Source of the DNA: an uncultured Pseudomonadota bacterium
GTDB taxonomy: Bacteria; CALINM01
NCBI GenBank assembly: GCA_964540515.1
Contig: CAZIMS010000003.1
Location: 10,010-74,009, forward strand
Length of the DNA: 64,000 bases
Direction: 5' to 3'
Shown: positions 5,373 through 38,791 of the stretch, piece after piece
Layout of the letters: each line of letters begins with the position of its first letter
How positions within the stretch are numbered: the first letter of the stretch is position 1
Notes under the pieces: model-generated
Told to the model about the DNA's origin: nothing
Database searches by the model: none
What the model saw: the letters and a program-made list of their open reading frames with translations, nothing else
Program-made: the position numbers and the translations under genes

Positions 5373-5374
5373 GT

Positions 5375-8377: not shown

Positions 8378-8401
8378 GATATAATTATTTTGAGGGAGAA
8401 A

Positions 8402-15911: not shown

Positions 15912-15968
15912 GCTGTAAAAGGGGTGATAAATATGAAGATATATAGCTTAATAAAAAGGAAGGTAAAT

Positions 15969-18900: not shown

Positions 18901-20264
18901 GTTATAAAAGAGGTACTATAATTGGTACCCATTTTAAAAAATACGATGGTGCCTACGTACAAGGTTATACTCCAAGAGACTGGAAAAATAGTGCTAATTC
19001 TGGTAATACTAGATCAGATCTAAGGGGTATGTGCACGCCATGTCATGATCCTCATGGAGTTAATGCCCTAAATGGAAGTCCCTACTTGGCAAATATAAGG
19101 TATTACTCTCCACAGCTTAAAGGTATGTGGCTAACAGGTTTATATTATGAAGACAGACCTGGAAATAGAGATACTTCTGCTAATTCCGAGGGCACTTACG
19201 CAGTTGTTAATACTTTTAGTACCAATACTCTTACTAATACGAGAGTAGCTCCAAGAATGGTTCCTACAAAAAGACTAAGCAGACCTAAACAAACAGGTAA
19301 TGGATATGGTTTTGGTTTGAATGACGGATTAGGTCAAGATGGTTTCTTTATTGATGATAATACCTTCGGCGTAACAATAAATAATGGTACTACTGCTGTT
19401 GAGTTGTTTAGTAATAATAATTATAATCTTGTGCATCAAAACTACTGGTTTGATAACTGGACTAATGGTCAAGTACATCCATTTCGTACAGGAGGGTCAG
19501 TTACTGTGAATATGATTTCGGAGAGTGAAAGTCAGTTTGCAGGTTTGTGCCTTGGTTGTCATCCAAAAAGCGTTTTAGTAAATACGCTATCATCTCATAA
19601 CAATAGAAGAGCGTCATTTCAAACGCATGCCCATAAAACAGTAAAAGGCTGGGCTGCAACGGCAAATTCGCCTGCAAATGCTGATATAGTACCAAACTAT
19701 TATATCAACAGAGCTTCTAACGCCGCAGGCTTAACGAACGCTTATACAACGACTAATAATTTTGGAAATATTTCAATGTCACCACTTCTATTGTATGCTA
19801 ATGGTGGTACTGCTGGAATAAGAGGATTAGATGCTCCTAATGTGCAGGTAGGTATTCACTTTTACTGGGGCTTACATTTACCAAAGCAGGCTGATACAAA
19901 CGCAAGCAACAATATACAGGTACAATATCATAACTTCCCATGCTCAAAGTGCCACACAGTTCACACCTCAAGGCTACCAAGACTTATGAAAACTAACTGT
20001 TTAGATGTAAGGCAGTCAAAAGATGTTGCAAATAACTGGGCATCAGGTAGTAATTTATTTAGACAGAAATTTGCAGAAGGTAATAATAACTGGTACATTA
20101 GAATGATTTATACAGGCACAAACAATAGTCCAGGAACATCAGGGACTACAGCAAATCTTCTCATCTGGAATCCAGCCAGAGCCGTTAGATGCCATAATAG
20201 TCCACTTGTTATGGATAACGTTAATCAAACCAGATGGAATGATGTAACTCCATGGGGTAATTAA
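15969..20264 (+). CDS. Giant secreted multiheme c-type cytochrome, about 1430 aa, about 17 heme sites
   Basis: Preferred start is MKKIALTFILMLLVPVIAQA (signal peptide, AAGGAAGG ribosome-binding site); the ORF track begins at a GTG at 15924. It has 14 CxxCH and 3 Cx4CH (CSNVYCH, CSNVSCH, CNNTDCH) motifs and an approximately 190-aa heme-free N-terminal domain. Confidence 0.9.
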   Translation: MKKIALTFILMLLVPVIAQAAVTVADVVKHIPTDVSVQAGASTTDLNRNVITLSYSLRSDQTNDVLTSITIDDTGTLAAGEADLKVYVNPMGRNSTRGAFLVVNQPSWSAASGTINFSRNIALTQNVKAFVFIVYDLRSTAAGRTIQTSVSSMGLAAGSGSGTSVPINQTSNLNNVVAKTACYDDVKLNQCGMCHNYQGYYQMFYPHSSATSRKGHEKHVGLNRFECFICHNNANRYHTRYTSVAPQHMNNAINVGPKIWDNVSSAGGLGVGHGSYNSSTRVCSNVYCHSNGAGTRVNSPAWGTKASGCTVCHGTPPNTGAHNAHWTRITGLTSPGDCGICHRDGGTGTFHHADGHVDVLFDPAYNDRNLTATYNTGAKTCSNVSCHGGVTTPAWNSATGAYRQTVTGAAFTSENNTWLRCEMCHVVDNITSGQETNVSRWNSARSGKHNAHAVTGLASMRAYTGIVNGVNFGRKRMRVSVCYVCHNNAHFDGTANDYRWTKASISDYHFSINPGGTNNTIGGSAQRGGGTVGANIFDTYVDNSTTAIALNTSPTQNVFYMRSTADIYQSGTCNNTDCHGGGTWSYVATLDCTTCHSKVIRGRTANVIAEFSMPSRHVQGVAVNSHHCYRCHWEADNNAGTIVKNALYHGDNKAQLVIYDSTNNARPTTANSATLTVFNRATSATSLRVNAHCLGCHNEGGKGKAIFPGDTRTTNQYAWDGSSIQARYMAYRRYSSHVYNAVTYNVVPNKIKTSSSHYYMNQHQRGVAVGAAWSDDQSTILAAGTFDAQGRQGSVGCLDCHNSHGSNIPFGTFGYTSYSSFTGKHRGGILKQTWANTHGYGDNYTPTERNLNVTGGLWAIWSAQAALCFDCHLGPDKAITAYLGSTYSSWSSVTTLPPDSRGVRRNYISYGRNAGNIIAGYYDPINYEAAITNRASIHGRGRWYIDLNTANTTYGNNGYSYVQNQRNNSAAFWFGEFSYKRGTIIGTHFKKYDGAYVQGYTPRDWKNSANSGNTRSDLRGMCTPCHDPHGVNALNGSPYLANIRYYSPQLKGMWLTGLYYEDRPGNRDTSANSEGTYAVVNTFSTNTLTNTRVAPRMVPTKRLSRPKQTGNGYGFGLNDGLGQDGFFIDDNTFGVTINNGTTAVELFSNNNYNLVHQNYWFDNWTNGQVHPFRTGGSVTVNMISESESQFAGLCLGCHPKSVLVNTLSSHNNRRASFQTHAHKTVKGWAATANSPANADIVPNYYINRASNAAGLTNAYTTTNNFGNISMSPLLLYANGGTAGIRGLDAPNVQVGIHFYWGLHLPKQADTNASNNIQVQYHNFPCSKCHTVHTSRLPRLMKTNCLDVRQSKDVANNWASGSNLFRQKFAEGNNNWYIRMIYTGTNNSPGTSGTTANLLIWNPARAVRCHNSPLVMDNVNQTRWNDVTPWGN

Positions 20265-20882: not shown

Positions 20883-20925
20883 AAGAGCTTATTTATCCTT
20901 TTTACAGTCAGGGTAATATGCTAAA

Positions 20926-21288
20926 TTGGTGGAAGCAGCATTCTATATAAATCAGCTTTATACTGGATTTGAAAGGATGTTTAAACACATAGCAAAAGTT
21001 TTTGAGAATAATATTGAAGATGACTTCTGGCATAAATCGCTTCTTGAGAGAATGTCTATTGAGATTGAGTCTGTAAGGCCTGCTGTTATATCTAAAAAGT
21101 ATTTTGATTATTTGAATGAGCTTCGATCATTTCACCATTTTTTCAGACATGCTTATGACACAGATATAGACAGAGAAAAGTTCAACATAGTTATAAAAAT
21201 GACAAAACATTTAGAGAAAACGGGAAGAAAAGATTTAGAAAAATTTGTTATATTCCTTCAAAACTTAATCAAGAAAATAGAAGGATGA
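20926..21288 (+). CDS. HEPN / nucleotidyltransferase substrate-binding protein (HI0074-like), toxin-antitoxin partner of the MNT
   Basis: A 120-aa helical protein whose RSFHHFFRHAYDTD fits the R-x(4-6)-H-x-Y HEPN/HI0074 motif. It lies directly downstream of the MNT gene. Confidence 0.6.
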   Translation: MVEAAFYINQLYTGFERMFKHIAKVFENNIEDDFWHKSLLERMSIEIESVRPAVISKKYFDYLNELRSFHHFFRHAYDTDIDREKFNIVIKMTKHLEKTGRKDLEKFVIFLQNLIKKIEG

Positions 21289-21386: not shown

Positions 21387-24002
21387 ATGAATGAGAGAAA
21401 GATTACTAATTATCTATTGTTAGTCTTTACACTATCGTCATTTATCTTAAGACTTATACCATGGAAATACACTATAATTGATGGTGGTAAATGGGTACTA
21501 TTTGTACAACCCGATGCCTATTACCATTTAAGAAGAGCAACTATTTGGGCACAGAATTTTCCTAAAATTTTTACTCTTGATTATTATATGGCATATCCAT
21601 TTGGTGCTGAGTGTCCTTGGCCGCCACTTTATGATTGGCTTATTGCTGTTGTGACGATTATTTTAGGAGGCGGAAAATATAATGTTAATATATTACAGAT
21701 TGTAACAGCATTATTCCCACCGATCTTAGCGGCATTATGTATTTATCCCGTTTATAAAGTTGTTTTTTTGATATGGAAAAGCAATAGAGTAGCTTTAATA
21801 GCTGCCTTTTTTGCTATCTTGATGCCAGGTATGCTTAGTTATTCAACCATAGCTTCTGGTGATCATCATATAGCAGAAACCTTGATAGGACTTTGTTTTT
21901 ATTATTATGCATTAAAAATTGTAGATGCTGCAGAGGATAAAGGGATATCTAATAAAGATGTTTCTTTAACTGCAATATTTATAATAATAGGACTGTTAGT
22001 ATGGCAAGGAGAGGTAGTTTTCTTTACAATTTTTGCTATTTATCTTTTTATCCTTTTTTTAAAAATGAGAAATAACTTTGAATTTATAAAAAAGGTCTCG
22101 AAGGCATTTTTGATATCCTCAATAATTAGTTCATCTTTTTTGGCATTAATAAGATTCATTATTCCAGGAGGAACTCATCTAAGTCTTTTTAATTTTGGTT
22201 ATTTTTCATACTTTCAACCCTTATACATGCTGTTTTTATATTTAGGAGTCTTTTTATTTGGAAGGTTAATATTCATTTATATGAAAAACAAAAAAATTTT
22301 TTTAATATCACTTTTAAGCACAGCTATTTTTATATTAACCACTTTAATTATTATCAAACCCTTAAGAGTTGGAGTTTGGGAAGGTATAAACTTCCTTTTC
22401 AAAACTGATCCATGGCATGCAAGTATAAATGAGTTTCAAAGTACCTTTACTTTGAATTTTCTAAAAAGTAGCTTAGAAAGCTTTGAAGGATGGACTAATA
22501 TTATTTATTTTTTATCATTTTTACTTCCTTTTACATATTCTGTATTTTTTATTTATAAATGGCTTAAAAATAAAAAAATAAGCTATCTATTTGTTACAGA
22601 ACTACAAATTAAACCATCAAAAAGTAATAACTTCATTATCAATAGTGAGCACTTTAAATATAATAACTCAGATATTTTGAAAAGATTTTTCGAAAAAAAT
22701 AAAAATAAAACTTTATTTTTTATTGTAGTCGCCATTGCTTTTTTTCTTTTAGCACTATATCAAAAGAGATGGACCAACTCTTATAGTCCAATTCTTGCTA
22801 TTGGGCTTAGTTTGTTTGCTAACAATATATATATAAGAGTTAAAAAAGGACATTTTTTAATAAGAGAGTTTTTTCATTGGAGGTCAAAAAAGCTTAAAGA
22901 TAGTCCTGGTCTATTAACAAGAATCATTTTTTTGTGGGAAAAATCGCCATTAATACTCTCTTTAATAATAATAATTCTTTTCTTATTCCCCTATTATATA
23001 ATAGCTCAAGGTATATTGTTAAGAAAAGGCTATCCCATAGAGTCAGATCTGTATAATAGCTTACAATGGATGAGATTATATACTCCAAAAACAAGCTATC
23101 TCTATAAACCAAATGAAAAACCAGAATATGGTGTACTCGCCACTTGGGATATGGGACACTTTATACAATACATAGCAGAAAGACCTGCAATCGTAAATAA
23201 TTTTGGTCATCAGCTACCGGGAGATGGCTTTAAAACATCTATATATGTATGGAGTTGTGATAGTGAAGATGAGCTCACATCTATTTTAGATAAATACCAG
23301 GTAAGATATTTAATCCTGTCAGATCCAATTGTTTACTTTAATGATAATGTTAAAGCTTATACAAAGGAAGGTTTTCTTGAAAAAGCAATACAGTTTGAAA
23401 AAATTCATTACAATATACAAGTACCAGTTCCTACAGAAGAGTTTTTTCGACTACCATTGGCAAATACATGGTTATTTGATGGGAGTGCGAACAATTATAA
23501 AAGTGCTACAAAAAGGCTAAGGTTAGTCTTTGAGTCTCAAAATCCAACACCTTTTCAGTATTTCGAAGGGTTAGAAACTAAAAAAATTAAGATATTTGAA
23601 TATGTTAAAGGTGTAAAGGTTAAAGGAAAAACAAAACCAAAAGATATTATATACATAAGTGCAGATTTTATTACTAATTTTGATAGAGGCTTTAGATGGG
23701 AAGCTGCAGCTATAGCTGATGAAAATGGTAACTTTACCGCCTATTTGCCCTACGCAACAGCAGAAGATAACCTTTTTGTTAAACCATTATCTCCCTATTA
23801 TTTTTATAGCTCCCAAAAAGAAATCAAAGTATATACAACTAATAGTGAGGTAGAAAATGGTGTCGAAAAAAGCGTTGATATGAATTCGGGTGAAAATATC
23901 CCAGAGTTTAAAAGGGATGAGATAAGACAAAAGCTAATTGGCTTAGCAGGTCAGGTAAGGTCTAAAAATTTTATGAAGTTACATAGGAAGATTAATGAAT
24001 AG
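21387..24002 (+). CDS. STT3/AglB/PglB-like oligosaccharyltransferase homolog (GT-C), 871 aa, divergent
   Basis: About 13 N-terminal transmembrane helices. The first loop has QPDAYYHLRRA...YYMAYPFGAECPWPPLYD, compared with Stt3 DPWFNYRA...WYPLGR...YPGLM. The motif ATWDMGHF sits where WWDYG lies in Stt3/PglB, followed by an approximately 300-aa C-terminal soluble domain. Confidence 0.55.
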   Translation: MNERKITNYLLLVFTLSSFILRLIPWKYTIIDGGKWVLFVQPDAYYHLRRATIWAQNFPKIFTLDYYMAYPFGAECPWPPLYDWLIAVVTIILGGGKYNVNILQIVTALFPPILAALCIYPVYKVVFLIWKSNRVALIAAFFAILMPGMLSYSTIASGDHHIAETLIGLCFYYYALKIVDAAEDKGISNKDVSLTAIFIIIGLLVWQGEVVFFTIFAIYLFILFLKMRNNFEFIKKVSKAFLISSIISSSFLALIRFIIPGGTHLSLFNFGYFSYFQPLYMLFLYLGVFLFGRLIFIYMKNKKIFLISLLSTAIFILTTLIIIKPLRVGVWEGINFLFKTDPWHASINEFQSTFTLNFLKSSLESFEGWTNIIYFLSFLLPFTYSVFFIYKWLKNKKISYLFVTELQIKPSKSNNFIINSEHFKYNNSDILKRFFEKNKNKTLFFIVVAIAFFLLALYQKRWTNSYSPILAIGLSLFANNIYIRVKKGHFLIREFFHWRSKKLKDSPGLLTRIIFLWEKSPLILSLIIIILFLFPYYIIAQGILLRKGYPIESDLYNSLQWMRLYTPKTSYLYKPNEKPEYGVLATWDMGHFIQYIAERPAIVNNFGHQLPGDGFKTSIYVWSCDSEDELTSILDKYQVRYLILSDPIVYFNDNVKAYTKEGFLEKAIQFEKIHYNIQVPVPTEEFFRLPLANTWLFDGSANNYKSATKRLRLVFESQNPTPFQYFEGLETKKIKIFEYVKGVKVKGKTKPKDIIYISADFITNFDRGFRWEAAAIADENGNFTAYLPYATAEDNLFVKPLSPYYFYSSQKEIKVYTTNSEVENGVEKSVDMNSGENIPEFKRDEIRQKLIGLAGQVRSKNFMKLHRKINE

Positions 24003-24684
24003 TAATTATAGGATATCCGTAGTTATTCCTGTGTATAATGAAAAGGATAATATTAAAAAGATAGTTGAAGAGGTATTAAAACAAAAGGTAGATGAGATTA
24101 TTATTATAGATGACTGTTCTAATGATGGCACAAGAGATGTTTTAAATAATATAGTTGATGATAATATTAAAAAGATATATCACGAAAAAAACATGGGGAA
24201 AGGAGCTGCTGTAAGAACAGGACTAAAAAGAGTTACTGGCGATATAATTATAATTCAAGATGCAGATCTCGAGTATGACCCTAATGAGTATATTAAGCTT
24301 CTTGAACCAATCTTTAAGGATAAGGCAGATGTTGTTTATGGTAGTAGATTTAAAGGTGTTACGAGGGTTTTTTATTTTTGGCATTATTTAGGCAATAAGT
24401 TTCTTACATTCATCTGCAATTTACTTTATAATACTACTTTGTCAGATATGGAGACCTGTTATAAGGTCTTTAAAAGAGAGTGTGTGACAGATTTAGAGCT
24501 TAAATCTAACGGCTGGGGTTTTGACCCAGAGATTACAGCTCATTTTCTAAAGAAAAAAAACATTCGAATTGTTGAGGTGCCCATATCCTATTATGGAAGG
24601 ACCTATGACGAGGGAAAAAAGATTAGGTGGAAGCATGGCATAGTAGTTTTATTTACTATATTTTGGTGTAAGTTTATAAAGTGA
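23995..24684 (+). CDS. GT2 glycosyltransferase, polyprenyl/dolichyl-phosphate sugar synthase (Dpm1-like)
   Basis: A 229-aa protein with ISVVIPVYNEKDNI...IIIIDDCSNDGT...IIIQDADLEYDP, the classic GT-A DxD fold of Dpm1/GtrB-like enzymes. Its start overlaps the stop of the OST-like gene. Confidence 0.8.
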   Translation: MNSNYRISVVIPVYNEKDNIKKIVEEVLKQKVDEIIIIDDCSNDGTRDVLNNIVDDNIKKIYHEKNMGKGAAVRTGLKRVTGDIIIIQDADLEYDPNEYIKLLEPIFKDKADVVYGSRFKGVTRVFYFWHYLGNKFLTFICNLLYNTTLSDMETCYKVFKRECVTDLELKSNGWGFDPEITAHFLKKKNIRIVEVPISYYGRTYDEGKKIRWKHGIVVLFTIFWCKFIK

Positions 24685-25745
24685 TGATTAGAAAGTTAAT
24701 ACTAATTTTTTTACTGCTTTTACCTCATATTTCTTATGCAAAAGAAGTAGAGCTTCTTAAATATAATACTATTAATGATATTGAAGAGATAAAAGCTGAT
24801 GAAGATACAGCCATTTTAATCCTATCGAGTAGATATTACATTGATGATCTAAGAAAGTTAGTTGGCGATAGGGGATATATTTACTGGGTTCTGCCTTTTT
24901 CTCAAGTAGAAGAAAAAGATTTGCTTGCATTTAGACATCTTGCCGAGACTTTAGGCAGGCATGTTAAAATAAACTTCACATCTGAAGGAGCCTATGTAGA
25001 AGAAGAAGGATGGTTAGATTACAAAATTATTTCTTATTTAGATCTTAACAAAGTTGTTTATGAGAAGATTGTAATATTGTTAGATGTTGATTTTTTCTTT
25101 AGACTTTATATTAATAGTATTTCAAAGGTTAACAATGAGAAAACCTTAGAGATAATGAAGTTTTACCGCAGCATTGAAAGTTATGAGCTTAATGTAAATC
25201 AGATATATTTAATATTAAGTAGAGATATTAATCTCCCTGAATGGGCTGAGGAGTTTGGTTATCTTATAGAAAAGATTTATCATTATTGGAAGAAAAAAGA
25301 GTTCCCAACAAGTTACGTTTTATTGGATGAGGTGGGCAAATATATAGTTTTTGCACAGTATGAAGAAGCCTATGAAATATTATTAGATGTGTTTCCAGAA
25401 CAGTCAGAAAATCCCTATTTTTATGAAAAAATGCTTTTTATAAGTTCAAAATTACGTGCCTTTAACGATATGTTAAAAGCTTTTGAGGAAGGATACAAAA
25501 GAAATAGTGCTATTATTTTTTTAGTGCCTGATATTGCAAAAGAATTATTGCAAAAGAGAGAGTTTTATCCTTCCTATCTATTAGTTAAAAGTGCCTATGA
25601 AAAGGAGATTTGGAATAAAGAGATAAAAAAGTTACTTGAAGATATTATTTTAGAAGGCTATAAATTCTATAATATGTTAAATGAAGATAGTGAGCTTTTT
25701 GAGTTTTTTAAGTCTGAATTGGAAAAGTTAAAAAGTAAGAAGTAG
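24681..25745 (+). CDS. Secreted hypothetical protein (354 aa)
   Basis: Signal peptide MMIRKLILIFLLLLPHISYA. No recognisable domain. Translationally coupled to the GT2 gene (ATGA overlap). Confidence 0.5.
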   Translation: MMIRKLILIFLLLLPHISYAKEVELLKYNTINDIEEIKADEDTAILILSSRYYIDDLRKLVGDRGYIYWVLPFSQVEEKDLLAFRHLAETLGRHVKINFTSEGAYVEEEGWLDYKIISYLDLNKVVYEKIVILLDVDFFFRLYINSISKVNNEKTLEIMKFYRSIESYELNVNQIYLILSRDINLPEWAEEFGYLIEKIYHYWKKKEFPTSYVLLDEVGKYIVFAQYEEAYEILLDVFPEQSENPYFYEKMLFISSKLRAFNDMLKAFEEGYKRNSAIIFLVPDIAKELLQKREFYPSYLLVKSAYEKEIWNKEIKKLLEDIILEGYKFYNMLNEDSELFEFFKSELEKLKSKK

Positions 25746-25764
25746 GGTTTACTGGGAGGTCATT

Positions 25765-27909
25765 ATGTATAGAATAGCCCTTATTGCTTTATCTTTCCTG
25801 TTTATTTTCTCTTGTGCAGGACCAAAGTTTATGAATAAATATGAGATAGAGTATGACGATAACTTTAAAGAATATGTTCTCTATCTTCATGGTGATTACA
25901 AAAATTGTAATAATGTAAAAATCGAGGTGTCCAAAGATGGTAAAAAGCTATTTCAGCAGGAATTATCTGGGAAAGTATCAGATTTTGCGGTAAATATACC
26001 TATAAAAAATCTTGATCTCGGTGAAAATATAGCAACGATTCTTTGTGATGAAAAAAAAGAAGATATTTCCATATCTATTTGGAATTTTAGAAATCCTATC
26101 TTGAGATATGTCTTTTCTCATAACTACAATGACAGTTTGGTTACACCAGAAGTAGAAGAGTTGATGGAAACAGATTTGTTTTTAAATGAGTTTAGAGAAT
26201 TTATACTTAAATCGGAAAAAAATTTTGTTAAAGCATCACCACTTATTGAGTTTTTAGATTATAAAAATAAATCAAAAATTCTTGATGAAGCAGCAAAAAA
26301 AAATTATGCCAGTAAAGAGAGTATGCTGGTTTTTTATGAGTATTTAAAAGGGCTTCTTTTTGACGATAGCTGTTTTAACGTAATAGATACATTGTTTAGC
26401 AGAAAAGACTATTATACAGATATGGAAGTTTTTAACATCCTTATGAGTAGACCTGAAAAAAGGATTTATGATAGATATTTTAATTTCTTTTTAAAAGAGC
26501 CCCATCTAAAGACTGCAATTTTAGAACATTTAATTGCTGATAGGGAATCACAGTTTTTTTTCGAGGCACTCATCTATTTTAAAGATAGAATTAGAAAAGA
26601 AGGATTAAAAGATCCCTTTGTGCTTAAATTTGCTAAAAATTACTTTGCCTATAATAGCCAAGAGTTACCTTTTATTATAGAAATGATGAAAGGTCAGTTT
26701 TATAAAGATGGCATTTTACTTTTGGATATAAATGATTTATATGAAGATAGTGGGAAAGAGGTTTTCAAGCATTATAAAGATTTTAATAAAGTAACAAAAA
26801 TTTATGTTTTAAAAAGACTTTTGCCTATTATTGGGGAAGACGAGGCTATTTTTACTACCGTAATTGAAGAAAGAGATAAAGATTTTATAGCAATACAATT
26901 AGAATATATATCAGCTTTTCCAAATAGGTATGATGATAAAACCTGGAGCTTTATTAAAAAATTAGTTGATGAAAATTATATAAAACTAGAAGTTTATAAT
27001 TATCTTCTAAACGCACCTTTAGAAATGAAAAAATATGGGTTTAGAAAAATTTATGAACAAAAAGGAAATCTTGAAAATTTAGTGAATCTTAAAGGTGTAG
27101 ATGATGAATATTATGAGAATGAACTTGTTAAAATTGCAAAAAAAACAAGAAAAAAAGATGCAGTAATGCTATTAGCTCATTTTAAAGAAAAATATTTAGA
27201 TTTTCTTATTGAAGTATACAAAGATGAGAAAAATGTAAACGACAGGGCAGATTTATTAGAAATGATAGCAGGATTGGGTACAAGGGGATATGATTTTGCT
27301 TTAAATGAAGTTCTTATTAAACCCTATAAGTTAGAATATGCAAAGGTATTGACAACATTAACACTAACGGCTAATGAGGAAAACTTAAAAAAGATTTTAG
27401 AAGATATAATGGGTTATCCAAAAGAATATTTCATTGAAGTAACTATAGGTCTTGAAAATGATAAAAAAAGGATAGACTGTGATAAGATTTTGCCTCAATG
27501 GTTTTATAACAAAAAAGATGAAGAAGAGATTATTAGAGTTGGATGGGTTTGGGCATATTGTTGTCCCCAAAGCTATTTAGACTATATTAAACTTGTTGAA
27601 GAAAGATATGGGAAAAATGAGAAGATTGTTAATGAGACCTTGGATGGCCTGATAGACATTATGAGTATCTTTAAGATAGATTATAAAGAGTTTACCAAAA
27701 ATTATGCTAAAAGCTACTTTGAGAGATTTCCTAATAAATATACCAAACTGAAGGTAGCAGAAATTTTAGGTGAGGTAGGAAGTAAGGAAGATATAAGCTA
27801 TTTCCATAGGTTAATTGAGGGCGAAGATGATACCGATTATATTGATATGATTATATATTTTAAAGAGATATTAAAGAACAGATATAATATTGTTGATGAA
27901 ACTAAATAA
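25765..27909 (+). CDS. Lipoprotein, 714 aa, helical-repeat rich, unknown function
   Basis: Lipobox LFIFSCAG after an N-terminal signal sequence, with a GGAGG ribosome-binding site. No catalytic motif recognised. Confidence 0.5.
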   Translation: MYRIALIALSFLFIFSCAGPKFMNKYEIEYDDNFKEYVLYLHGDYKNCNNVKIEVSKDGKKLFQQELSGKVSDFAVNIPIKNLDLGENIATILCDEKKEDISISIWNFRNPILRYVFSHNYNDSLVTPEVEELMETDLFLNEFREFILKSEKNFVKASPLIEFLDYKNKSKILDEAAKKNYASKESMLVFYEYLKGLLFDDSCFNVIDTLFSRKDYYTDMEVFNILMSRPEKRIYDRYFNFFLKEPHLKTAILEHLIADRESQFFFEALIYFKDRIRKEGLKDPFVLKFAKNYFAYNSQELPFIIEMMKGQFYKDGILLLDINDLYEDSGKEVFKHYKDFNKVTKIYVLKRLLPIIGEDEAIFTTVIEERDKDFIAIQLEYISAFPNRYDDKTWSFIKKLVDENYIKLEVYNYLLNAPLEMKKYGFRKIYEQKGNLENLVNLKGVDDEYYENELVKIAKKTRKKDAVMLLAHFKEKYLDFLIEVYKDEKNVNDRADLLEMIAGLGTRGYDFALNEVLIKPYKLEYAKVLTTLTLTANEENLKKILEDIMGYPKEYFIEVTIGLENDKKRIDCDKILPQWFYNKKDEEEIIRVGWVWAYCCPQSYLDYIKLVEERYGKNEKIVNETLDGLIDIMSIFKIDYKEFTKNYAKSYFERFPNKYTKLKVAEILGEVGSKEDISYFHRLIEGEDDTDYIDMIIYFKEILKNRYNIVDETK

Positions 27910-28822
27910 AATTTTAATTATCTTTCTTCTTTTTTTTAATGTAAAAATTGTTTTTGCACTAAAGATAGAGCCAGATTTCATCAAGATTGGAGAAATATTA
28001 AAAGAAACGGAATACACTTTTAATATTAAAGTTTTTAATAATAGCAATGAGCCAATAGAGATCTTAGGGGTTATAAATCAATGTGGCTTAAATTTTAATC
28101 TTGAGAGGAAATATCTGTCTCCCCTGAAAGCTATATATGGCGAATTAAGATTCAACTCGGGCACTAACCCCGGCAGATTTATTGAATCTGTGAAGATAGT
28201 ATATAAAGAGAAAGACACAATTAAACAAAAAACACTTACTGTTAGCTGGTTCAATAAAGTTGAGTTTTATAGCAAACTTTTTATTTTGGATAAGAAAATT
28301 GATTTAGGTGAAATAAAACAAAATAGAAGCAAAAAATTTTTCATAGAAGTTGTTAATGCTGGTAATAGCGAGGGGGAGATTTTATTTCATGCCCTTGATG
28401 AAGGTTTGACTACAAATGTTAGAGAGAAGATACCCCCCAAATCTAATAAATTTTTGGAACTTAAGCTTGATGCTAAAACAGAAGTTATAAAAAAAAGATT
28501 AAGCTATGAGAAGCTTGATGTAAGAGGGGGTAGTGGTTTTGTAGAAATATTTGGAAGACCTTCTCAAATTTATTCTATTAGTATTGATAATCCTGTAAAA
28601 AAAGACCAGACCTATGAGTTAAGTTTGATAATGAATAATGTAAATAGTTTAGGGCAGTTATTAGAAGTTAGAGATGTTCATGGAAATAAATACGCTTTTG
28701 ATAGATCAGCGATTTTTAGAGGGGATAACATTATCAAGGTGTTTGTGCCAGAAAAAAATATTGATATTGTAGTTAAAAATGGAATTGTTTTGACTGTTAA
28801 GTTTCTACTTAATGATGAATAA
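27890..28822 (+). CDS. Secreted protein with two DUF1573-like (Ig-like) repeats
   Basis: Signal peptide. Repeats IKIGEILKETEYTFNIKVFNNSNEPIEILGVINQCG and IDLGEIKQNRSKKFFIEVVNAGNSEGEILF resemble the DUF1573 consensus (DFG.i..g....F...N.G..pL.I). Confidence 0.35.
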   Translation: MLMKLNKILIIFLLFFNVKIVFALKIEPDFIKIGEILKETEYTFNIKVFNNSNEPIEILGVINQCGLNFNLERKYLSPLKAIYGELRFNSGTNPGRFIESVKIVYKEKDTIKQKTLTVSWFNKVEFYSKLFILDKKIDLGEIKQNRSKKFFIEVVNAGNSEGEILFHALDEGLTTNVREKIPPKSNKFLELKLDAKTEVIKKRLSYEKLDVRGGSGFVEIFGRPSQIYSISIDNPVKKDQTYELSLIMNNVNSLGQLLEVRDVHGNKYAFDRSAIFRGDNIIKVFVPEKNIDIVVKNGIVLTVKFLLNDE

Positions 28823-30500
28823 TAACTTAAAGAAGCACTACTTTTACCTGTACATCTCAGTAATTATTTTTATGTCCCTTATAATTTATGGAAAAACAGT
28901 ATTTTTTTCCTTTGTTACCGATGATTGGATGAATATTTTTGACAATAGTTTGTATTTTTCTTTGGAAGATATTAAAAGGATCTTTACTTCTACTCAGATT
29001 AATTATAGAGACGAAAGTTATTATAGGCCCTTAGATACAATCTATTTCCTAATCACATTTAATCTTTTTAATGACAATCCCTTTTATTACCATATCCTTA
29101 ATATATTTTTTTTTATATTTTTCCTTATTTTATTTTATTGCTATTGCTTAAAAAAGTTTTCTGATAGAAACTTAGCTTTAATTTTAATATTACTTTTTTT
29201 GTCTCATCCTATAAATGTAGAAACTGTTTCATGGATTTCAGCAAGAAATCAGATTTTAATAGGCATTTTTTTTGTCTTGGCGATAACTTTTTCTGAAAAA
29301 ATTTTTGAGAAAGGCAACATTAATATTTTTCTAATTTTAATTTCTGGTGTTATGGCCTCTCTAATACACGAGATAGGGTTAATGGTATTTCCATTGGTAA
29401 TTTTTTTGGTTTTTAATCAATCAGTAAATATAAATGTAGCAAAAATTAAAAAAAAACAAATAATTTTGTTATTTTCTTTTTCTATTATTGTAATTTTATA
29501 TTTGTATGTAAGAAGTTTTTTGGGAATTACTTTAAAAATTGAACATAGTTTATATGAGAGATTATTAACGTCTTTTATTATTTTTAAAAAAACAATTTTT
29601 AATCTTGTCTTCCCCTTTAATCTCAAACTCTATTATCATGAGTTAGTGGTCAAGAAATCAATGGATTTAGAAGTAATGAGTTCAATATTAATTTTTGTGT
29701 GTTTTTTAACTGTTACTACCTTTATTGCTTTGAAAAATCCTATTGCAAGAGTTGGTTATTTCTTCTTTTGGCTAACATACGTACCTTTTTCAGGAGTTTT
29801 CAAGTTAATTGATAGGTCTTTTATATCTGACAGATATCTTTTTTTGCCCTTATGTGGAATACTGATAATGTTTTTTGCGGTTGCAAAAAAAAATTTATCT
29901 AACTATTCTAAATACCTTTATTTAGTATCTTTTTTTGTTATTATAATTTTTTCCATTATAAGTTTTAATAGAGTGGATATCTGGAAAAATGACTTAGAAA
30001 ACGCAAAAGAGCTCGTGAGAGAATATCCTGAAGAAGACAGTTATAGAAATAACCTTGCGATACTCTATTTAAACAATGGTGATTTGGATGCTGCAGAAAA
30101 GGAGTTTTTAGAAGCAATGAAAATAGCCAAATACCAAAAAGATTATTTAGTCGCTACAGAGGCTTTTATCAGTATTATAAAAGGCAATAGGGAGGAGGCT
30201 AAAAAAATTTATTTGAATTACTTAAATACAAATAAGTATAACATGAAAATTAATTATAACTTAGGGGTACTTTTTTTAGAAGAAGGTGATAGAGAAAAGG
30301 CAAAATATCATCTTGAACTTGCAAAGAAAGTAGCAAAAAAATACTTAAGAGAATATCCAGACATTTTGAATAATTTAGGAGTTATCGAATTTATTAGTGG
30401 AAATAATAAAAATGCAGAAAGTTATTTTCTCGAAGGATTAAAAATTAGACCCTATGACAAAAGGCTATTGCAAAATATAGAAAAAATAAGAAAAGATTAG
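28812..30500 (+). CDS. TMTC/DUF1736-like GT-C glycosyltransferase: N-terminal multi-TM domain plus C-terminal TPR repeats (paralog 1)
   Basis: Motifs FSFVTDDW (DD in the first loop), YYRPL, SARNQ and ISDRYLFLP, then TPR repeats (NNLAILYLNNGDLDAAEKEF...). This is the architecture of TMTC-type O-mannosyltransferase-like proteins. Confidence 0.65.
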   Translation: MMNNNLKKHYFYLYISVIIFMSLIIYGKTVFFSFVTDDWMNIFDNSLYFSLEDIKRIFTSTQINYRDESYYRPLDTIYFLITFNLFNDNPFYYHILNIFFFIFFLILFYCYCLKKFSDRNLALILILLFLSHPINVETVSWISARNQILIGIFFVLAITFSEKIFEKGNINIFLILISGVMASLIHEIGLMVFPLVIFLVFNQSVNINVAKIKKKQIILLFSFSIIVILYLYVRSFLGITLKIEHSLYERLLTSFIIFKKTIFNLVFPFNLKLYYHELVVKKSMDLEVMSSILIFVCFLTVTTFIALKNPIARVGYFFFWLTYVPFSGVFKLIDRSFISDRYLFLPLCGILIMFFAVAKKNLSNYSKYLYLVSFFVIIIFSIISFNRVDIWKNDLENAKELVREYPEEDSYRNNLAILYLNNGDLDAAEKEFLEAMKIAKYQKDYLVATEAFISIIKGNREEAKKIYLNYLNTNKYNMKINYNLGVLFLEEGDREKAKYHLELAKKVAKKYLREYPDILNNLGVIEFISGNNKNAESYFLEGLKIRPYDKRLLQNIEKIRKD

Positions 30501-30506
30501 GGTTAT

Positions 30507-31706
30507 ATGAGATTAATTGTTTATCAGGTAGATTTAAGGATGACTATCCTGTGTCAATTTTTGTGATTTATATCTACAATCTCATTATATTTAGTAACAC
30601 TCTTTTATTTGATCTTGTTTGGGATGATATCTCCTTTCTACTGGAAAACCTCAAAATAATAGAATTAAATAGATTTTTATTTTTTTGTAGAACCCATGCC
30701 CACTGATATTTGGCCTATTAATTATAGACCTCTGCTGATGTTTAGTTTTGGCTTGGATTGCGCTCTTTGGGGATATAAATCCTTAATCTTTTAGATTGTA
30801 TTTTGAGTATCTTAGATTATTGTTTTTCCTCTACCAACTTAAATTGATTTATCATCAATTGCCTATATAAAGATTTTTTTCAGTTTGGATATATGCCATA
30901 CGCAATTTTCTTAGTTATTATATTTATTTTCTTTTTTAAAATAAGGGGAAGATATGGATTTTTTTTGTTTTGTCTCAATAATAATCTCACTTATAACGGC
31001 CTCAGATTTCTAAGTCTTATTGATATCTCACCTCTCGAAGAAAGGTATTTATATTTTCCGAGGGTTTTTTTGGTTTTCTTTAGTTCTATTTATTATAAAA
31101 GAAGTAAATAAAAAGGTAGTTCTTTATATAGCAATTGGTTTTATGGGACTTTATAGTTTTTTTTGGAATTTTAATTGGAAGAACCAAGGTGGCTTTCTGA
31201 CAAAAAAGATAAAAGATGATCCTAACTATAAAGGAGTTCATCATGAGTTTGCCCCTTTTAATCTTATAAAAGGAAATATTGATTTTTCCGAAAGGCCTTC
31301 CAAGAAAGCAATAGATATAAGAAGAGATTATTTAGAGGCTTATGTAATGTCTGAGAACCTATACAGTCTAACAAGAAGGGATGAAGAAGCTCTCCCCTAT
31401 TACTAAAAAGCTTCTCAGATAAATAAGCATAACCTTCTAATTTAAAATAATATTGCTACTACCTACCAAAATATGATGAAATTAGATAAGGCGCTTCTAA
31501 ATTACTACAGGGCTTTTCAAATTGATGAAAATTTTTATAAAACAAATTATAATCTTGGTTATTTACTTTGGAGAGTTAACAGAAATTTAGAAGCTATTAA
31601 CTTTTTGAGAAGGCCTTATAGTATAATAAATAATATTAACTTGCTAAAAGATATTAGACAATTTGAAATAGATATAGAAAAAGAGTTAAGAAATGGGGAA
31701 AGATAA
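30507..31706 (+). pseudogene. Decayed TMTC/DUF1736-like paralog (frameshifts and an internal deletion)
   Basis: Fragments in three frames carry the family motifs: LFDLVWDDISFL, then a shift in a T-run to PINYRPLLMFSFGLD, then LEERYLYFP (30893-31111), then WNFNWKNQ...KDDPNYKG plus TPR remnants (31020-31706). Total length is well short of the roughly 1.7 kb of the intact paralogs. Confidence 0.7.
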
Positions 31707-33765
31707 AAAGATTTTTTTCAGTATTTTAGGTGTGGTAATACTTTTTAATATTATCAACAGATTGAGCTTTTTAAGATATGTCTTTGCCTTTCCCGAACTT
31801 AGACTTGTTGGTCCTGATAGTTTTTATCATTTAAAAAGAATAATTTATACCTTTGAAAATTATCCAGAGATGCTTATGTTTGATCCTTTTTTATCATATC
31901 CAGAGGGTGATTTTGTTCCATGGCCGCCTTTATTTGATTTCATAGGTGGTAGTCTTGCAAAAATAATTGGTAATCCTATTTATTCATCTGTTTTTTTAAA
32001 TTTTTTTGTAGGGTTATTAACTCTATTATTAATATTGTTATATTTAAGTAAAAGGCATATAACAGCGACTATAGTCTCACTTAGTATATTAGCAGTTTCA
32101 ACATTATTTGTTAGTTCTCAGAGCGTTGGCAATATAGACCATCATGCTTTAGAAGTTTTTTTGGTTTTATCTTTTTATCTGTCTTTTGCTTACTTAGAGA
32201 ATAAAATTTGGAAGGTTATCATTTTATCTATTATAGTAACACTAAGCTTCTTCAATTGGCCAGGTGCACCTTTATATTATGGTCCCGTTTTTTTATTTAA
32301 TTTAGTTAATATGATAAAGAAAGAAAACAATAAGTTCAATTGGGTTAATATAGCCATTCCGTTCTTTGTTTCAGGTTCTTTAATCTATCTGTATTTGACT
32401 TTTTCTGGTTATAATGTCTTTGATTATTCTTACAGATTTTTTTCAAGGTTTCATGTAGATTTTTGCTTCTTCGTTGCCTTTGTGTCATTTGCTGCAATTC
32501 TTTATGGGGCAAAGCATATACCAAAATTTATTCCCTTAACTCTAACAGTAGTCATTTTTGTAATTTTTAGGGGGATATTCTTTGAGGTTTTTGGTGGAAT
32601 GGGCTATCTAACAAAGACGGCAGAGAGTCAACTTATGGGTTTAGTCAGTGAGTCACAACCATTGTTTTTTGGTAATAATAGATTTTTTATTGATGATTTT
32701 GTTAGAAATCTGTTTTTTTTTAGTATTTTTTATCTCATCAGTCCCTTTATTATTTATAGAGAGATTAAGAAGAAAAATAATGAATTACTTTTTTTTGCCT
32801 TAGTATATTTTTTCTTGTTAACATTTTTTCAGATCAGAATGGGTATCTTTTTTGTTCCTTTTATAGCAATTTTCTGTGGTTATTTAGCTTTTGAATATTA
32901 TAAATCAGGAAAAACATTTATAAAAAAGCATATTTTTTTAATAGTAGCTCTAATAAATATGCTTGTTATGACAATAATATGGTTTAGACTGGGTTATGAA
33001 AATTATGATTTTGGGAAACACACTATCTATGAAACTATGAATTACCTTAGGGAGAATACTAAAGATAAAGAGAGGTTTCAAAGAGGTGAGGTGCCCTATG
33101 GTATTTTTACTGCCTGGGACATTGGGCATTACGTAGTAACCTTGGGAAACAGGCCTGCAATCGCACATAACTTTATTACCAATGCAAGAAATAATAAGGA
33201 ACTTGAGTATATAAAGGCTATTTACTCAAAATCTGAAGATGAGATTGTTAGTTTGATGGATAAAAACAATACCCCCTATTTAATCATATCTAATCTTTAT
33301 CAGTATGTGGCAAATAGTTGGAGTTTAGTTTATAATTCTTATAATCCCTATGTAACAGAATATGAAGATAAGGTAGAGTTAAATGATAATATTAATGATT
33401 TATTTTTGAATAATCTTGTATTTGGAGGCTATCCCTCTAAGCACTTAAGAATAGTCTTTGAAGCCGATTTTAAAGATAACTTACATGATTACATAGCTAT
33501 TGTAGAAAGGGTTAAGGGGGTAAAATTAGTAACAAAAGAGAAAGGGGTCATTATAGTAAACTTAAAAACAAAAAATGGAGACCTTGAACTTTCATATAAT
33601 CCTGAAAATATTGGCCAAAAATATATCTTTACAGTACCATATTCAACAGATAAGAAATTTGATGTAATAGTAGATAGTGTACTATTTAAAAATGAGAGGG
33701 GTATAAAGAGGCTTTTCATAAGTGAGGAAGAAGTGATTAATGGAGTTGAAAGAATTTTATTTTAG
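31693..33765 (+). CDS. STT3/AglB-like oligosaccharyltransferase homolog (GT-C), 690 aa, paralog of 21387-24002
   Basis: Same motif set: GPDSFYHLKRI...LSYPEGDFVPWPPLFD in loop 1, GNIDHHALE, and FTAWDIGHYV at the WWDYG position, followed by a C-terminal soluble domain. Confidence 0.55.
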   Translation: MGKDKKIFFSILGVVILFNIINRLSFLRYVFAFPELRLVGPDSFYHLKRIIYTFENYPEMLMFDPFLSYPEGDFVPWPPLFDFIGGSLAKIIGNPIYSSVFLNFFVGLLTLLLILLYLSKRHITATIVSLSILAVSTLFVSSQSVGNIDHHALEVFLVLSFYLSFAYLENKIWKVIILSIIVTLSFFNWPGAPLYYGPVFLFNLVNMIKKENNKFNWVNIAIPFFVSGSLIYLYLTFSGYNVFDYSYRFFSRFHVDFCFFVAFVSFAAILYGAKHIPKFIPLTLTVVIFVIFRGIFFEVFGGMGYLTKTAESQLMGLVSESQPLFFGNNRFFIDDFVRNLFFFSIFYLISPFIIYREIKKKNNELLFFALVYFFLLTFFQIRMGIFFVPFIAIFCGYLAFEYYKSGKTFIKKHIFLIVALINMLVMTIIWFRLGYENYDFGKHTIYETMNYLRENTKDKERFQRGEVPYGIFTAWDIGHYVVTLGNRPAIAHNFITNARNNKELEYIKAIYSKSEDEIVSLMDKNNTPYLIISNLYQYVANSWSLVYNSYNPYVTEYEDKVELNDNINDLFLNNLVFGGYPSKHLRIVFEADFKDNLHDYIAIVERVKGVKLVTKEKGVIIVNLKTKNGDLELSYNPENIGQKYIFTVPYSTDKKFDVIVDSVLFKNERGIKRLFISEEEVINGVERILF

Positions 33766-33783: not shown

Positions 33784-35505
33784 ATGATTTTTGAAAGATA
33801 TTTTGATAAAAAGATAAGTTTCTTTGTTTTTATATCAATTTTAACTATTTTATGCTTCTTTAATGCCCTCTTTATGGATTTTGTATGGGATGATATTGTA
33901 CACTTAGATAAATTTAAATTTATATTAAAGAATTTTTCTGATTTATTGGATTTTTTCAAAAGTACCAATATTGTTGGACAACCTTTTTACTATAGACCAC
34001 TAATGTTAATAAGCTACGGATTAGATTATCTTCTTTATAATACTAATTCCTTCGGATATCACTTAACTTCATTAATAATTCATATTCTAAATGTTTTTTT
34101 AGTATTTCTGATTACTGAGAAAATATTAAATAAAAATGTTGCTCTTTTAAGCTCCATTATATTTGCTATTCATCCCGTTCACGCTGAACCAGTTGTCTGG
34201 ATATCCGCTCGAGCAGATGTGTTAAGTGCATTATTCTTATTTGCTTCTTTTTATTTTTATCTGAAATTATTAGATGAAGGGAAATACAAATATTTTGGTG
34301 CAACAATATTTTTCTATGCCTTAACAATTTTAACCAAAGAAACCTCAATAGTCTTACCGATAATTTTTTTGATATATCCTTTCTTCAAGAATGATAAGTT
34401 TAAAAAAAATATATATATTACCTTTCTTTTCACTTTGCTTTTGTCTATAGGATATATTATTGTTAGGATTAATATTGTAAACAGTTTTTGGGGAACTGAT
34501 TATTTCCCTTTTCAGTCGAAAATAGCAACTATCCCTTTAGTTATTTTAAGTTACTTCAAATTGTTTTTTTATCCCTTTGACCTAAGGTTGTTATATAATG
34601 AGCCAAAGATATTGTCAGAGCCAAATTTATATTCATTTATTAGTTGGGGGATTTTATTTTTATTCATTTTATTTATATTTACTCTCTACAAACGAGAAAG
34701 ACTGATTACTTTTTTCTTGGTATTCTACCTACTTTTTCTTTTACCTGTTTCAGGTATAGCTACATTTATAAGAGTGTCTTTAATTGCCGATAGATATTTA
34801 TACTTACCCTCCTATGGTCTAATTGTTTTTTGTTCTTATTATTTTTTAAAACTTTATGAGGTTTTTAAAAGTGAGAAGGCAAAAAAATATCTGGAAAAAT
34901 TGTTTTTTGTTTATTTATTAATACTTTTTTTATTGACTGTTTTTAGGAACTTTCACTGGAGCGACCAATTTAATTTTTTATCGAAAATGATAAAAGATAA
35001 ACCTGATTATTATGGAGCTTATATTCATTTAGGAACTTATTATCTATCAGCAAAAAGGTTTAATGAAGCTGAAGATGCCTTTGAGACTGCTTTAAAATAT
35101 ATGGGCGAAGAAGATATACATATAGTTATGAATAATTTTTGTGTTTTATATTTTGAGAAAGGTGATTATGTTGAAGCAGAAAAATATTGTCTTAAAAGTA
35201 TAGAGCTGAACAAAGAGTATTCTTTTCCTTATTATAATCTTGCTTCAATTTATTTAGAAACAGATCAGCTAAACAAATCCTATATTGTAATACAAGAAGC
35301 TATAAAGTATGATAAACTAAACCCAGATTTCTATAATAAGGCAGGTTATATAGCTTTACTTTTAGGGCATATTGATGAAGCAATAATGTACATAGATAAA
35401 GCAATAGAATTAGATCCTAAAAATGAGATGTTTAGAAGAAATAAAGAAATAATATTAAAATTTGGATTTTCTTCAAAGGTGCAAGATGTTGTACAAAAAC
35501 CTTAA
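33784..35505 (+). CDS. TMTC/DUF1736-like TM+TPR GT-C glycosyltransferase (paralog)
   Basis: MDFVWDDIVHL, FYYRPLML, SARADV and IADRYLYLP, followed by C-terminal TPRs. Confidence 0.65.
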   Translation: MIFERYFDKKISFFVFISILTILCFFNALFMDFVWDDIVHLDKFKFILKNFSDLLDFFKSTNIVGQPFYYRPLMLISYGLDYLLYNTNSFGYHLTSLIIHILNVFLVFLITEKILNKNVALLSSIIFAIHPVHAEPVVWISARADVLSALFLFASFYFYLKLLDEGKYKYFGATIFFYALTILTKETSIVLPIIFLIYPFFKNDKFKKNIYITFLFTLLLSIGYIIVRINIVNSFWGTDYFPFQSKIATIPLVILSYFKLFFYPFDLRLLYNEPKILSEPNLYSFISWGILFLFILFIFTLYKRERLITFFLVFYLLFLLPVSGIATFIRVSLIADRYLYLPSYGLIVFCSYYFLKLYEVFKSEKAKKYLEKLFFVYLLILFLLTVFRNFHWSDQFNFLSKMIKDKPDYYGAYIHLGTYYLSAKRFNEAEDAFETALKYMGEEDIHIVMNNFCVLYFEKGDYVEAEKYCLKSIELNKEYSFPYYNLASIYLETDQLNKSYIVIQEAIKYDKLNPDFYNKAGYIALLLGHIDEAIMYIDKAIELDPKNEMFRRNKEIILKFGFSSKVQDVVQKP

Positions 35506-38768: not shown

Positions 38769-38791
38769 AAGGTAAATGAAATAATTATATT

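Follow-up and report, generated by a model that had tools for sequence, protein, structure and literature searches.

In the solved structures of STT3-type oligosaccharyltransferases (OSTs), the pocket for the Ser or Thr of the acceptor is formed by the WWDYG motif together with the DK/MI motif (PMC8342417). The complex of the archaeal enzyme AglB-L from Archaeoglobus fulgidus (AfAglB) contains dolichol monophosphate (PMC8342417; PDB 7E9S). In bacteria, the PglB enzymes of Desulfovibrio deviate from the usual motifs, with WWDWG, with NL in place of DK/MI, and with a relaxed acceptor rule (PMC12229607). Here we describe two genes, P1 and P2, whose products resemble AglB and have an altered WWDYG motif. 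They lie in a stretch of 64,000 nucleotides (the window) from an uncultured Pseudomonadota bacterium (assembly GCA_964540515.1, contig CAZIMS010000003.1, positions 10,010 to 74,009 of the forward strand). P1 is found close to two genes for giant multihaem c-type cytochromes, and this association is considered below together with the possible acceptor of the enzyme.

An earlier note on this DNA had predicted two STT3/AglB-like proteins of 871 and 690 residues. Both open reading frames (ORFs) were recovered with the position, strand, and length given there; they share the interval 21387-33765 with six further genes and a pseudogene. The sole NCBIfam model matched by P1 and P2 is TIGR04154 (archaeo_STT3), which covers most of both proteins with E-values of 6.8e-99 and 6.5e-51, respectively. 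The corresponding scores, 332 and 174 bits, are well under the curated cut-off of 450 bits, and the two proteins therefore fall outside that subfamily. In Pfam, P1 matches AglB_core-like and AglB_L1 above threshold; for P2, AglB_core-like (24 bits, cut-off 27) and PMT_2 (18.5 bits, cut-off 26.1) are both sub-threshold. When the whole PDB was searched by sequence, the A. fulgidus AglB chains were the only matches of either protein (P1 to 5GMY/3WAJ, E = 1e-15; P2 to 3WAJ, E = 3.4e-5).

Structural comparison gives the same ranking. AlphaFold2 models built from the clade alignments have a mean predicted local distance difference test score (pLDDT) of 85.2 and a predicted template modelling score (pTM) of 0.85 for P1, and of 88.4 and 0.87 for P2. 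With Foldseek, the top PDB match of both is AfAglB-L (7E9S; E = 6.5e-33 with a template modelling (TM) score of 0.72 for P1, E = 6.5e-27 for P2), P2 reaches a TM score of 0.83 with 3WAK, and the AfAglB matches run over the full length. Eukaryotic STT3 comes second (E = 1e-16 to 1e-12), followed by PglB and the C-mannosyltransferase DPY19 (about 1e-9 to 1e-8), so that DPY19 was discarded as the closest structural relative. ArnT is found only at E = 7.8e-4 (P1) and 2.5e-3 (P2), and Pmt4 at 3.6e-4 with P1 only. An ArnT or PMT identity (GT83/GT39) was likewise rejected: there is no such match by sequence in the PDB, the Foldseek matches are far weaker than those to AglB, and no PMT or PMT_2 model is above threshold. 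The earlier note had named beforehand two ways in which its assignment could fail, a best structural match to ArnT or PMT and the lack of an STT3-type C-terminal domain. ArnT and PMT are far worse matches than AfAglB, and the C-terminal globular domain is present in both models, in agreement with the Pfam domains of P1. As judged from sequence comparisons and models, P1 and P2 are thus full-length STT3/AglB-type enzymes of the glycosyltransferase-C (GT-C) fold with the architecture of archaeal AglB-L. In a segment between membrane helices, P1 also has about 40 extra residues (396-434) that are rich in Asn and Lys and modelled with low confidence (pLDDT <50); they are missing from P2 and are gapped out in the clade-to-clade alignment.

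The catalytic residues of AfAglB have counterparts in both proteins. In external loop 1 (EL1), D43 of P1 and D42 of P2 align with D47 of AfAglB, the first acidic motif. The second, DXD-type motif is D159-H-H161 in P1 and D149-H-H151 in P2, equivalent to D161-x-H163. The surrounding blocks, SGDHHIAE (P1 157-164) and NIDHHALE (P2 147-154), had been noticed earlier as a peculiarity of these proteins; they are indeed present and conserved, but HMMER aligns them to NDHHIWE of AfAglB (D161-H162-H163), so that DHH is simply the normal archaeal form of this motif. In external loop 5 (EL5), the Glu of the TIXE/SVSE motif is found in S-I-N-E349 (P1) and in V-S-E320 (P2, aligned to TIAE of AfAglB). Finally, the Arg of transmembrane helix 11, R426 of AfAglB, located near the lipid phosphate, is found in Q-K-R461-W (P1) and Q-I-R382-M (P2). 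Each of these positions is invariant within its clade, as seen from 33 sequences of the P1 type (D43, D159-H-H161, E349, and R461) and from 23 of the P2 type, and near-universal among 200 relatives. Hence the residues responsible in AfAglB for binding of metal, acceptor carboxamide, and lipid phosphate are invariant or nearly so across the collected sequences. In some sub-branches of the relatives, D-H-H of the second motif is changed to D-N-N, D-N-E, or D-Q-H; these branches keep the Asp of EL1, the Glu of EL5, and the Arg. As for the other blocks pointed out previously, YPxG...PWPPL occurs in both proteins, and the first-loop block is also present, with an order of residues different from the proposed D-P-x-x-x-Y-H. 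It reads P-D-x-x-Y-H-L-[RK]-R, as in QPDAYYHLRR of P1 and GPDSFYHLKR of P2.

The situation is different in the Ser/Thr pocket. TWDMGHF (P1 586-592) and AWDIGHY (P2 474-480) are aligned by HMMER with WWDYGHW of AfAglB, which bears out the replacement of WWDYG. This change was followed in 30 P1-type and 22 P2-type orthologues, to which an exhaustive HMMER search added 146 more representatives. The first Trp is missing in 52/52 members of the two clades. The motif reads [P/T/S/A/Q]-W-D-[H/M/I/L/F]-G-H in the P1 clade and x-W-[H>D,E,S]-x-G-H in the P2 clade, and its retention across all these orthologues argues against chance and makes it a stable clade character. The partner DK/MI motif is lost as well. 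At the DK position, which is defined at the level of the alignment only, canonical-type sequences such as P0031 (D-VEMATG-K-FYA-M) share D-x6-K-x3-M with AfAglB, whereas P2 reads S-N-L-Y-Q-Y-V there and nothing more than [D/N]-P-I is left in the P1 clade. In the region of the DGGK (or DNXTZNX[T/S]) motif, located past WWDYG, P1 has V-N-N-F-G-H, of which N605, F606, and G607 are near-invariant, vs. A-N-P-F-Q-A-G in AfAglB, and a literal DGGK is found in neither. Read at the sequence level, the catalytic centre is thus intact and both halves of the Ser/Thr pocket are degenerate. Degenerate WWDYG and DK signatures, along with the decayed gene located between P1 and P2, are also what one would expect if P1 and P2 were inactive relics or purely structural paralogues. 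We consider this extremely unlikely, because neither ORF is truncated or interrupted, both folds are predicted with confidence, the catalytic residues are invariant over hundreds of divergent sequences, and the operon structure is conserved.

The earlier note had further regarded P1 and P2 as one distinct clade. This does not hold, since they occupy separate branches of the tree within a much larger radiation. A BLAST comparison of P1 with P2 aligns their C-terminal halves only (24% identity). With hhalign, the P1 clade and P2 show end-to-end homology (probability 100%, E = 1.3e-69, 677 columns) at 22% identity. By these comparisons, P1 and P2 are two ancient paralogous lineages. The OHK0040 bin contains P1-type, 755-aa-type, and P2-type genes together (tags _03360, _00620, and _01350), and the N2202 bin a P1-type and a P2-type gene; this joint retention argues for distinct, non-redundant roles. 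Searched with HMMER, the 50%-identity clusters contain 2,720 relatives at E <= 1e-3, of which 297 reach E <= 1e-30. Canonical WWD[Y/F]G is limited to one cluster of a neighbour-joining tree built from 200 sequences, and the other branches retain the second Trp and the Gly only; this tree is crude and midpoint-rooted, so that the relationships between clades are approximate. Among the 150 nearest representatives (set P0063-P0208; motif readable in ~116), WWD[Y/F/N/H]G is kept in ~17.

The named members of this radiation are all bacterial and belong to Elusimicrobiota, Thermoanaerobaculia (Acidobacteriota), and Anaeromyxobacter (Myxococcota), a taxonomic spread drawn from a few named proteins of metagenome-assembled genomes (MAGs; alignment-seeded homologue search, 13 matches). 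At NCBI, the first two are labelled 'STT3 domain-containing protein' and the Anaeromyxobacter protein 'hypothetical protein'. The family itself is therefore already known, as the databases call relatives STT3-domain proteins. In the literature searched, which leaves out most subscription journals, we found neither a description of a WWDYG-less bacterial AglB clade nor a report of a link between OSTs and multihaem cytochromes. Thus, what appears to be undescribed is a large and catalytically intact radiation, bacterial where named, without WWDYG and DK, as well as its pairing with giant multihaem cytochromes and, in one lineage, the Asn-centred non-canonical motif presented below.

The genomic neighbourhood of P1 is informative about its possible acceptor. 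In 11/14 informative loci, that is, those having enough upstream sequence, the STT3-like gene comes immediately after a gene of the same orientation that encodes an orthologue of the window's 1446-aa cytochrome. The orthologue shares with the window protein 84% identity in L005, 43% in L008, 34% in L010, and 31% in L011 (L numbers designate the compared loci). In L005, L008, L021, L022, and L027, the 1446-type gene is itself preceded by an orthologue of the 1595-aa cytochrome. This synteny persists with STT3 proteins that have diverged to about 31-33% identity and with a genomic GC content ranging from 33% to 65%. The cytochromes bear signal-like N-termini. The 1446-aa cytochrome is thus predicted to be secreted and is a candidate acceptor substrate of P1. 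An origin of the cytochrome-plus-OST module in Methanoperedens-like archaea was also considered and rejected, since no cytochrome gene adjoins AglB in the archaeal loci L002-L004. Between the cytochrome gene and P1, the window has two small ORFs at 20565-21288, encoding a nucleotidyltransferase-like protein (105 aa) and a HepT-like protein (120 aa; PF20797 on the identical contig of a second assembly). The pair looks like an MntA/HepT toxin-antitoxin system and is absent at the equivalent position in L005.

Downstream, P1 overlaps the gene of a family 2 glycosyltransferase (GT2), which directly follows the STT3-like gene in 11/11 informative loci of the group with at least 45% identity. The GT2 matches Pfam Glycos_transf_2 (2e-38) and, below threshold, NCBIfam AglJ (1e-36). 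Its closest solved relatives are the Dol-P-Man synthase of Pyrococcus (9e-19), ArnC (4e-13), and GtrB (3e-11), all of which are polyprenyl-monophosphate sugar synthases. This enzyme presumably makes the lipid-linked donor used by P1, and its type suggests a lipid monophosphate donor, as in AfAglB.

GT-C enzymes of the ArnT, GtrX, and Emb types transfer sugars from polyprenyl phosphate to non-protein acceptors. The STT3 fold could similarly have been re-used on lipid A or lipopolysaccharide, on a capsule or exopolysaccharide, or on a cell-wall polymer. The resemblance of the GT2 to ArnC and GtrB would fit such a role, as would the location of the genes inside a 35-kb sugar-modification island and the lack of any candidate secreted protein next to P2-type and 755-aa-type genes. 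However, the proteins keep the core and peripheral domains of AglB, the xIxE strand of EL5, which pairs with the backbone of the acceptor peptide, and the Asp/Glu pair to which the amide of Asn binds. Moreover, synteny with one orthologous secreted protein is conserved over deep divergence, and ArnT, PMT, and Emb are poor structural matches. A non-protein acceptor is therefore judged quite unlikely.

If the cytochromes are acceptors of a protein-glycosylating enzyme, they may carry a signature of the sites. In the cytochromes encoded next to the enzymes of a high-GC sister lineage, P0015 and P0017, the over-representation of the dipeptide Asp-Asn is second only to that of the haem motif, and about 19-20% of all Asn follow Asp. 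The extended motif D-N-x-[S/T/A/V] is observed 37 times vs. 5.5 expected in L010 (943-9867; z = 14), 20 vs. 3.1 in L024 (2-4660; z = 10), and 29 vs. 3.9 in L025 (2-5998; z = 13). In L011, where regions 3710-9022 and 2-2851 were scanned, the cytochrome has 18 vs. 3.1 (z = 8.6), and a partial cytochrome-like protein beside it has 15 vs. 1.7 (z = 10). The motif is found neither in the cytoplasmic neighbours of this lineage nor in the enzymes themselves. Its flanks are heterogeneous, and L010 and L011 share 15/29 alignable sites and have 39 and 18 private ones. Such turnover, together with the heterogeneous flanks, is the behaviour of glycosylation sites and is unlike that of structural motifs. 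D-N-x-[S/T/A/V] is thus a candidate non-canonical sequon of the sister lineage, a lead rather than a proof, the enrichment being counted in cytochromes that are related to each other. The loss of both pocket halves and the enrichment of this motif next to sister-clade genes make a possible change of acceptor specificity in P1 and P2 more plausible.

Since the sequon-reading Ser/Thr pocket is gone, proteins could also be glycosylated on a residue other than Asn from a polyprenyl-phosphate monosaccharide, either on Trp by C-glycosylation as with DPY19 or on Ser/Thr by O-glycosylation as with PMT. DPY19 is indeed among the structural matches (E = 3.5e-9 for P1 and 1e-8 for P2), and both DPY19 and PMT are supplied by enzymes of the Dol-P-Man-synthase type, to which the GT2 belongs. 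Nevertheless, compared with DPY19, AfAglB is a better match by about 24 orders of magnitude in E-value and eukaryotic STT3 by about 4-7, the STT3-specific catalytic set is fully retained, and the sole motif enriched in the neighbouring substrates is centred on Asn. Transfer to a residue other than Asn is, on balance, very unlikely.

Taken together, these observations suggest the following scheme. The GT2 would load a sugar onto polyprenyl monophosphate at the cytoplasmic face of the membrane. Still on its lipid, and either as such or extended to a short glycan, the sugar would then be flipped to the periplasmic side, where P1 would transfer the glycan to side chains, most likely of Asn, of exported proteins and chiefly of the neighbouring giant cytochrome, following an acceptor rule that would no longer be Asn-x-Ser/Thr. 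P2, the pocket of which is more altered than that of P1, would carry out related chemistry, probably with a different acceptor or donor and possibly together with the adjacent GT-C proteins bearing tetratricopeptide repeats (TPR). Acceptor and donor of P1 are both what we infer from genes and motifs, and we give the scheme as a whole an even chance of being correct. The broader view, in which a dedicated bacterial system would glycosylate giant extracellular multihaem cytochromes by means of an archaeal-type OST with a new acceptor rule, D-N-x-[S/T/A/V] being one such sequon, is possible and still doubtful.

Several observations weigh against the scheme. The altered motif retains its second Trp, its Gly, and its His, and the Asp is near-invariant in the P1 clade, so that some recognition of Ser/Thr might survive. 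The two window cytochromes have 25 and 29 N-x-S/T sites, with no excess over composition (z = -0.2 and -0.5). An unbiased scan of dipeptides and gapped dipeptides in the window-type cytochromes returned haem-motif signals only, and in the 1446-aa cytochrome of the window the excess of D-N-x-[S/T] is weak (5 vs. 1.1 expected, z = 3.6). Hence, no acceptor motif can be named for P1. Three loci, forming one subclade (L006, L019, and L026), have the cassette without cytochromes, P2-type and 755-aa-type genes usually stand alone, and no flippase for the lipid-linked sugar, GtrA-like or other, was identified. The approximate nature of the tree mentioned above is to be added to these points.

Part of this evidence is also that of a rival explanation, in which P1 and P2 are ordinary N-oligosaccharyltransferases acting on Asn-x-Ser/Thr and the motif changes reflect neutral drift in a tolerant pocket. 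Besides the residues just listed, with Trp, Gly, and His invariant, the Asp and Glu that activate the carboxamide are retained, and each neighbouring cytochrome offers 25-61 N-x-S/T sites, with a mild excess in the orthologues of L021 and L022 (z = 2.2-2.3). This explanation is nonetheless unlikely in our view, because both halves of the pocket are changed stably across whole clades, the Asp of the motif is mostly His, Glu, or Ser in P2 orthologues, the window cytochromes lack a sequon excess, and WWDXG is regarded as essential in the literature (PMC12229607).

P1 belongs to a conserved cassette made up of the STT3-like gene, the GT2 gene, genes for an exported protein of ~354 aa, a lipoprotein of ~714 aa, and a DUF1573/Ig-like protein, and a B12 radical-SAM gene on the opposite strand. 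The features of the window around P1 and P2 are collected in Table 1.

Table 1. Positions of P1, P2, and the genes around them in the window.
Feature	Coordinates	Strand	Size and remarks
Second multihaem cytochrome	11124..15911	+	1595 aa; 34 CxxCH
Multihaem c-type cytochrome	15924..20264	+	1446 aa; 14 CxxCH + 3 CxxxxCH; N 10%, S+T 18%; TIGR01904
P1, AglB-L-type STT3-like GT-C glycosyltransferase	21387..24002	+	871 aa; D43, D159-H160-H161, S-I-N-E349, R461, T-W587-D-M-G-H; DK motif absent
GT2 polyprenyl-phosphate sugar synthase (DPM1/AglJ/ArnC/GtrB-like)	23995..24684	+	229 aa; overlaps P1 stop codon by 8 nt
Cassette protein	24681..25745	+	354 aa; N-terminal hydrophobic signal-like segment
Cassette protein, probable lipoprotein	25765..27909	+	714 aa; …FIFSC N-terminus
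Exported DUF1573 / Ig-like cassette protein	27890..28822	+	310 aa; Pfam DUF1573 4e-8
TPR/GT-C protein (TMTC/PMT_2-like)	28812..30500	+	562 aa; polytopic, ~10 TM-like segments, C-terminal TPR
Decayed seventh TPR/GT-C copy (pseudogene remnant)	30501..31692	+	broken across several frames
P2, shorter paralogous AglB-like GT-C	31693..33765	+	690 aa; D42, D149-H150-H151, V-S-E320, R382, A-W475-D-I-G-H
PMT_2 + TPR GT-C protein	33784..35505	+	573 aa; starts 18 nt past P2; Pfam PMT_2 2.5e-13 + TPR; eight TM-like segments
B12-binding radical-SAM enzyme	35473..36945	-	490 aa; Pfam Radical_SAM + B12-binding; HpnJ/BchE-like sub-threshold

An orthologue of the 354-aa protein comes after the GT2 in L001, L005-L008, L019-L022, and L027; the 714-aa protein is kept in L001, L006, L007, and L020, and the 310-aa DUF1573 protein in L001, L006-L008, L020, L022, and L027. 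Neither of the first two has a match in Pfam or NCBIfam, and for the third no family besides DUF1573 was found there. The radical-SAM gene forms the conserved end of the cassette, which it adjoins in L006-L008, L010, L011, L020, L022, L023, and L027. In the window, two TPR/GT-C genes, the pseudogene remnant, and P2 intervene between the DUF1573 gene and the radical-SAM gene. The 562-aa TPR/GT-C protein is a full-length paralogue of the PMT_2-positive protein encoded downstream of P2, and its orthologue occupies the same place in L001. The remnant, ~0.5 kb shorter than the intact paralogues, looks like an intergenic gap; collinear tblastn/blastx fragments correspond to paralogue residues about 8-90 and 327-538 (E down to 4.5e-8).

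A conserved partner of P2 was looked for and rejected. In L016 and L017, P2-type genes are stand-alone, and only a gene for a flavodoxin-like FMN reductase (~186 aa) precedes and overlaps them (L016:9469-12076, L017:9472-12040). Multihaem cytochrome genes are located <10 kb from the P2-type gene in both loci. A distant relative with a degenerate motif is found in an Anaeromyxobacter sp. MAG (L014:10001-15993, GCA_046351695.1), along with PMT_2/TPR, GT2, and methyltransferase genes. This module is located amid genes for type IV pilin-like (N_methyl) proteins, a prepilin peptidase, and a YfhO-type GT-C protein, which suggests that pilins may be the substrates in the Anaeromyxobacter lineage. Its similarity and its pilin-like neighbours indicate that the module is stable and that the neighbouring secreted proteins differ.

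The host is an uncultured, peptidoglycan-containing bacterium of low GC content (about 33%). Genes for LysM and SPOR proteins are found in the window, along with grpE-dnaK-dnaJ and a MacB/FtsX-HlyD efflux set. A MAG protein labelled 'Proteobacteria bacterium' falls into the same >=90% cluster as the DnaK of the window, and the window sequence is also present in metagenome assembly GCA_900096875.1. As a whole, the 35-kb sugar-modification island contains three GT2s, seven TPR/GT-C paralogues (one decayed), a carbamoyltransferase, a C-methyltransferase, and a dehydratase. It continues beyond the cassette, at about 36999-56000, with four more polytopic TPR/GT-C paralogues (36999, 48867, 50420, and 52953), two further DPM1-like GT2s (47516 and 52247), and a second B12 radical-SAM gene on the minus strand (54574-55971). 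The same part encodes the carbamoyltransferase with a GDSL hydrolase, a pair recurring in L011, the sugar C-methyltransferase, the NDP-sugar dehydratase, and a 981-aa fused MFS/spermidine-synthase protein. At 59806-60822, next to the SPOR and LysM proteins, is encoded a protein with actin-like ALP_N and archaeal MreB-like C-terminal domains, unrelated to P1 and P2. No Rfam match for an RNA element was found anywhere in the 64-kb window.

If a lineage of this size, with only bacteria among its named members, does retain the OST chemistry without the sequon reader, then the rule by which N-glycosylation sites are chosen would be capable of evolving. Such a lineage would also be a source of new enzymes for glycoengineering in bacteria, which is limited in practice by sequon restrictions. 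The conserved association of the STT3-like gene with giant multihaem cytochromes suggests glycosylation of extracellular-electron-transfer proteins in these bacteria, which could affect the stability of these proteins, their surface display, and their contact with minerals. Were the dedicated system real, the hundreds of x-W-x-x-G relatives, with named examples in Elusimicrobiota, Acidobacteriota, and Myxococcota, would form a reservoir of OSTs with diverse non-canonical site specificities.

Among known systems, the best match of P1 and P2 in both sequence and structure is AfAglB-L, a single-subunit archaeal enzyme of CAZy family GT66 (3WAJ, 3WAK, 5GMY, and 7E9S). They share with it the overall architecture with the AglB core, the L1 peripheral domain in the case of P1, and the equivalents of the catalytic D47, D161-x-H163, TIxE360, and R426. 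They differ by an identity of 17-19% only, by TWDMG or AWDIG in place of WWDYG, by the absence of the DK(i) motif (D-x6-K-x3-M), and by their bacterial host; in addition, His81 of AfAglB, near the lipid phosphate, is aligned with a Pro of the clade-specific E-C-P-W-P-P-L block. The archaeosortase-A-associated OST described by TIGR04154 covers most of both proteins, but at scores below its cut-off and with no archaeosortase context at this locus. The bacterial PglB enzymes of Campylobacter and Desulfovibrio are likewise single-subunit STT3 homologues and act in the periplasm. However, they are much weaker structural matches, they retain both Trp of WWD, of which P1 and P2 lack the first, and they use undecaprenyl-diphosphate oligosaccharides; a pgl-type locus is absent here. 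Finally, the three-part systems, in which GtrB, ArnC, or DPM1 works with GtrX, ArnT, PMT, or DPY19, follow the same logic of a DPM1/ArnC/GtrB-like GT2 paired with a GT-C enzyme, and TPR-bearing PMT_2-type GT-C proteins are also present in the island of P1 and P2. In those systems the GT-C partner is of the ArnT, PMT, or Gtr type, whereas P1 is of the STT3/AglB type.

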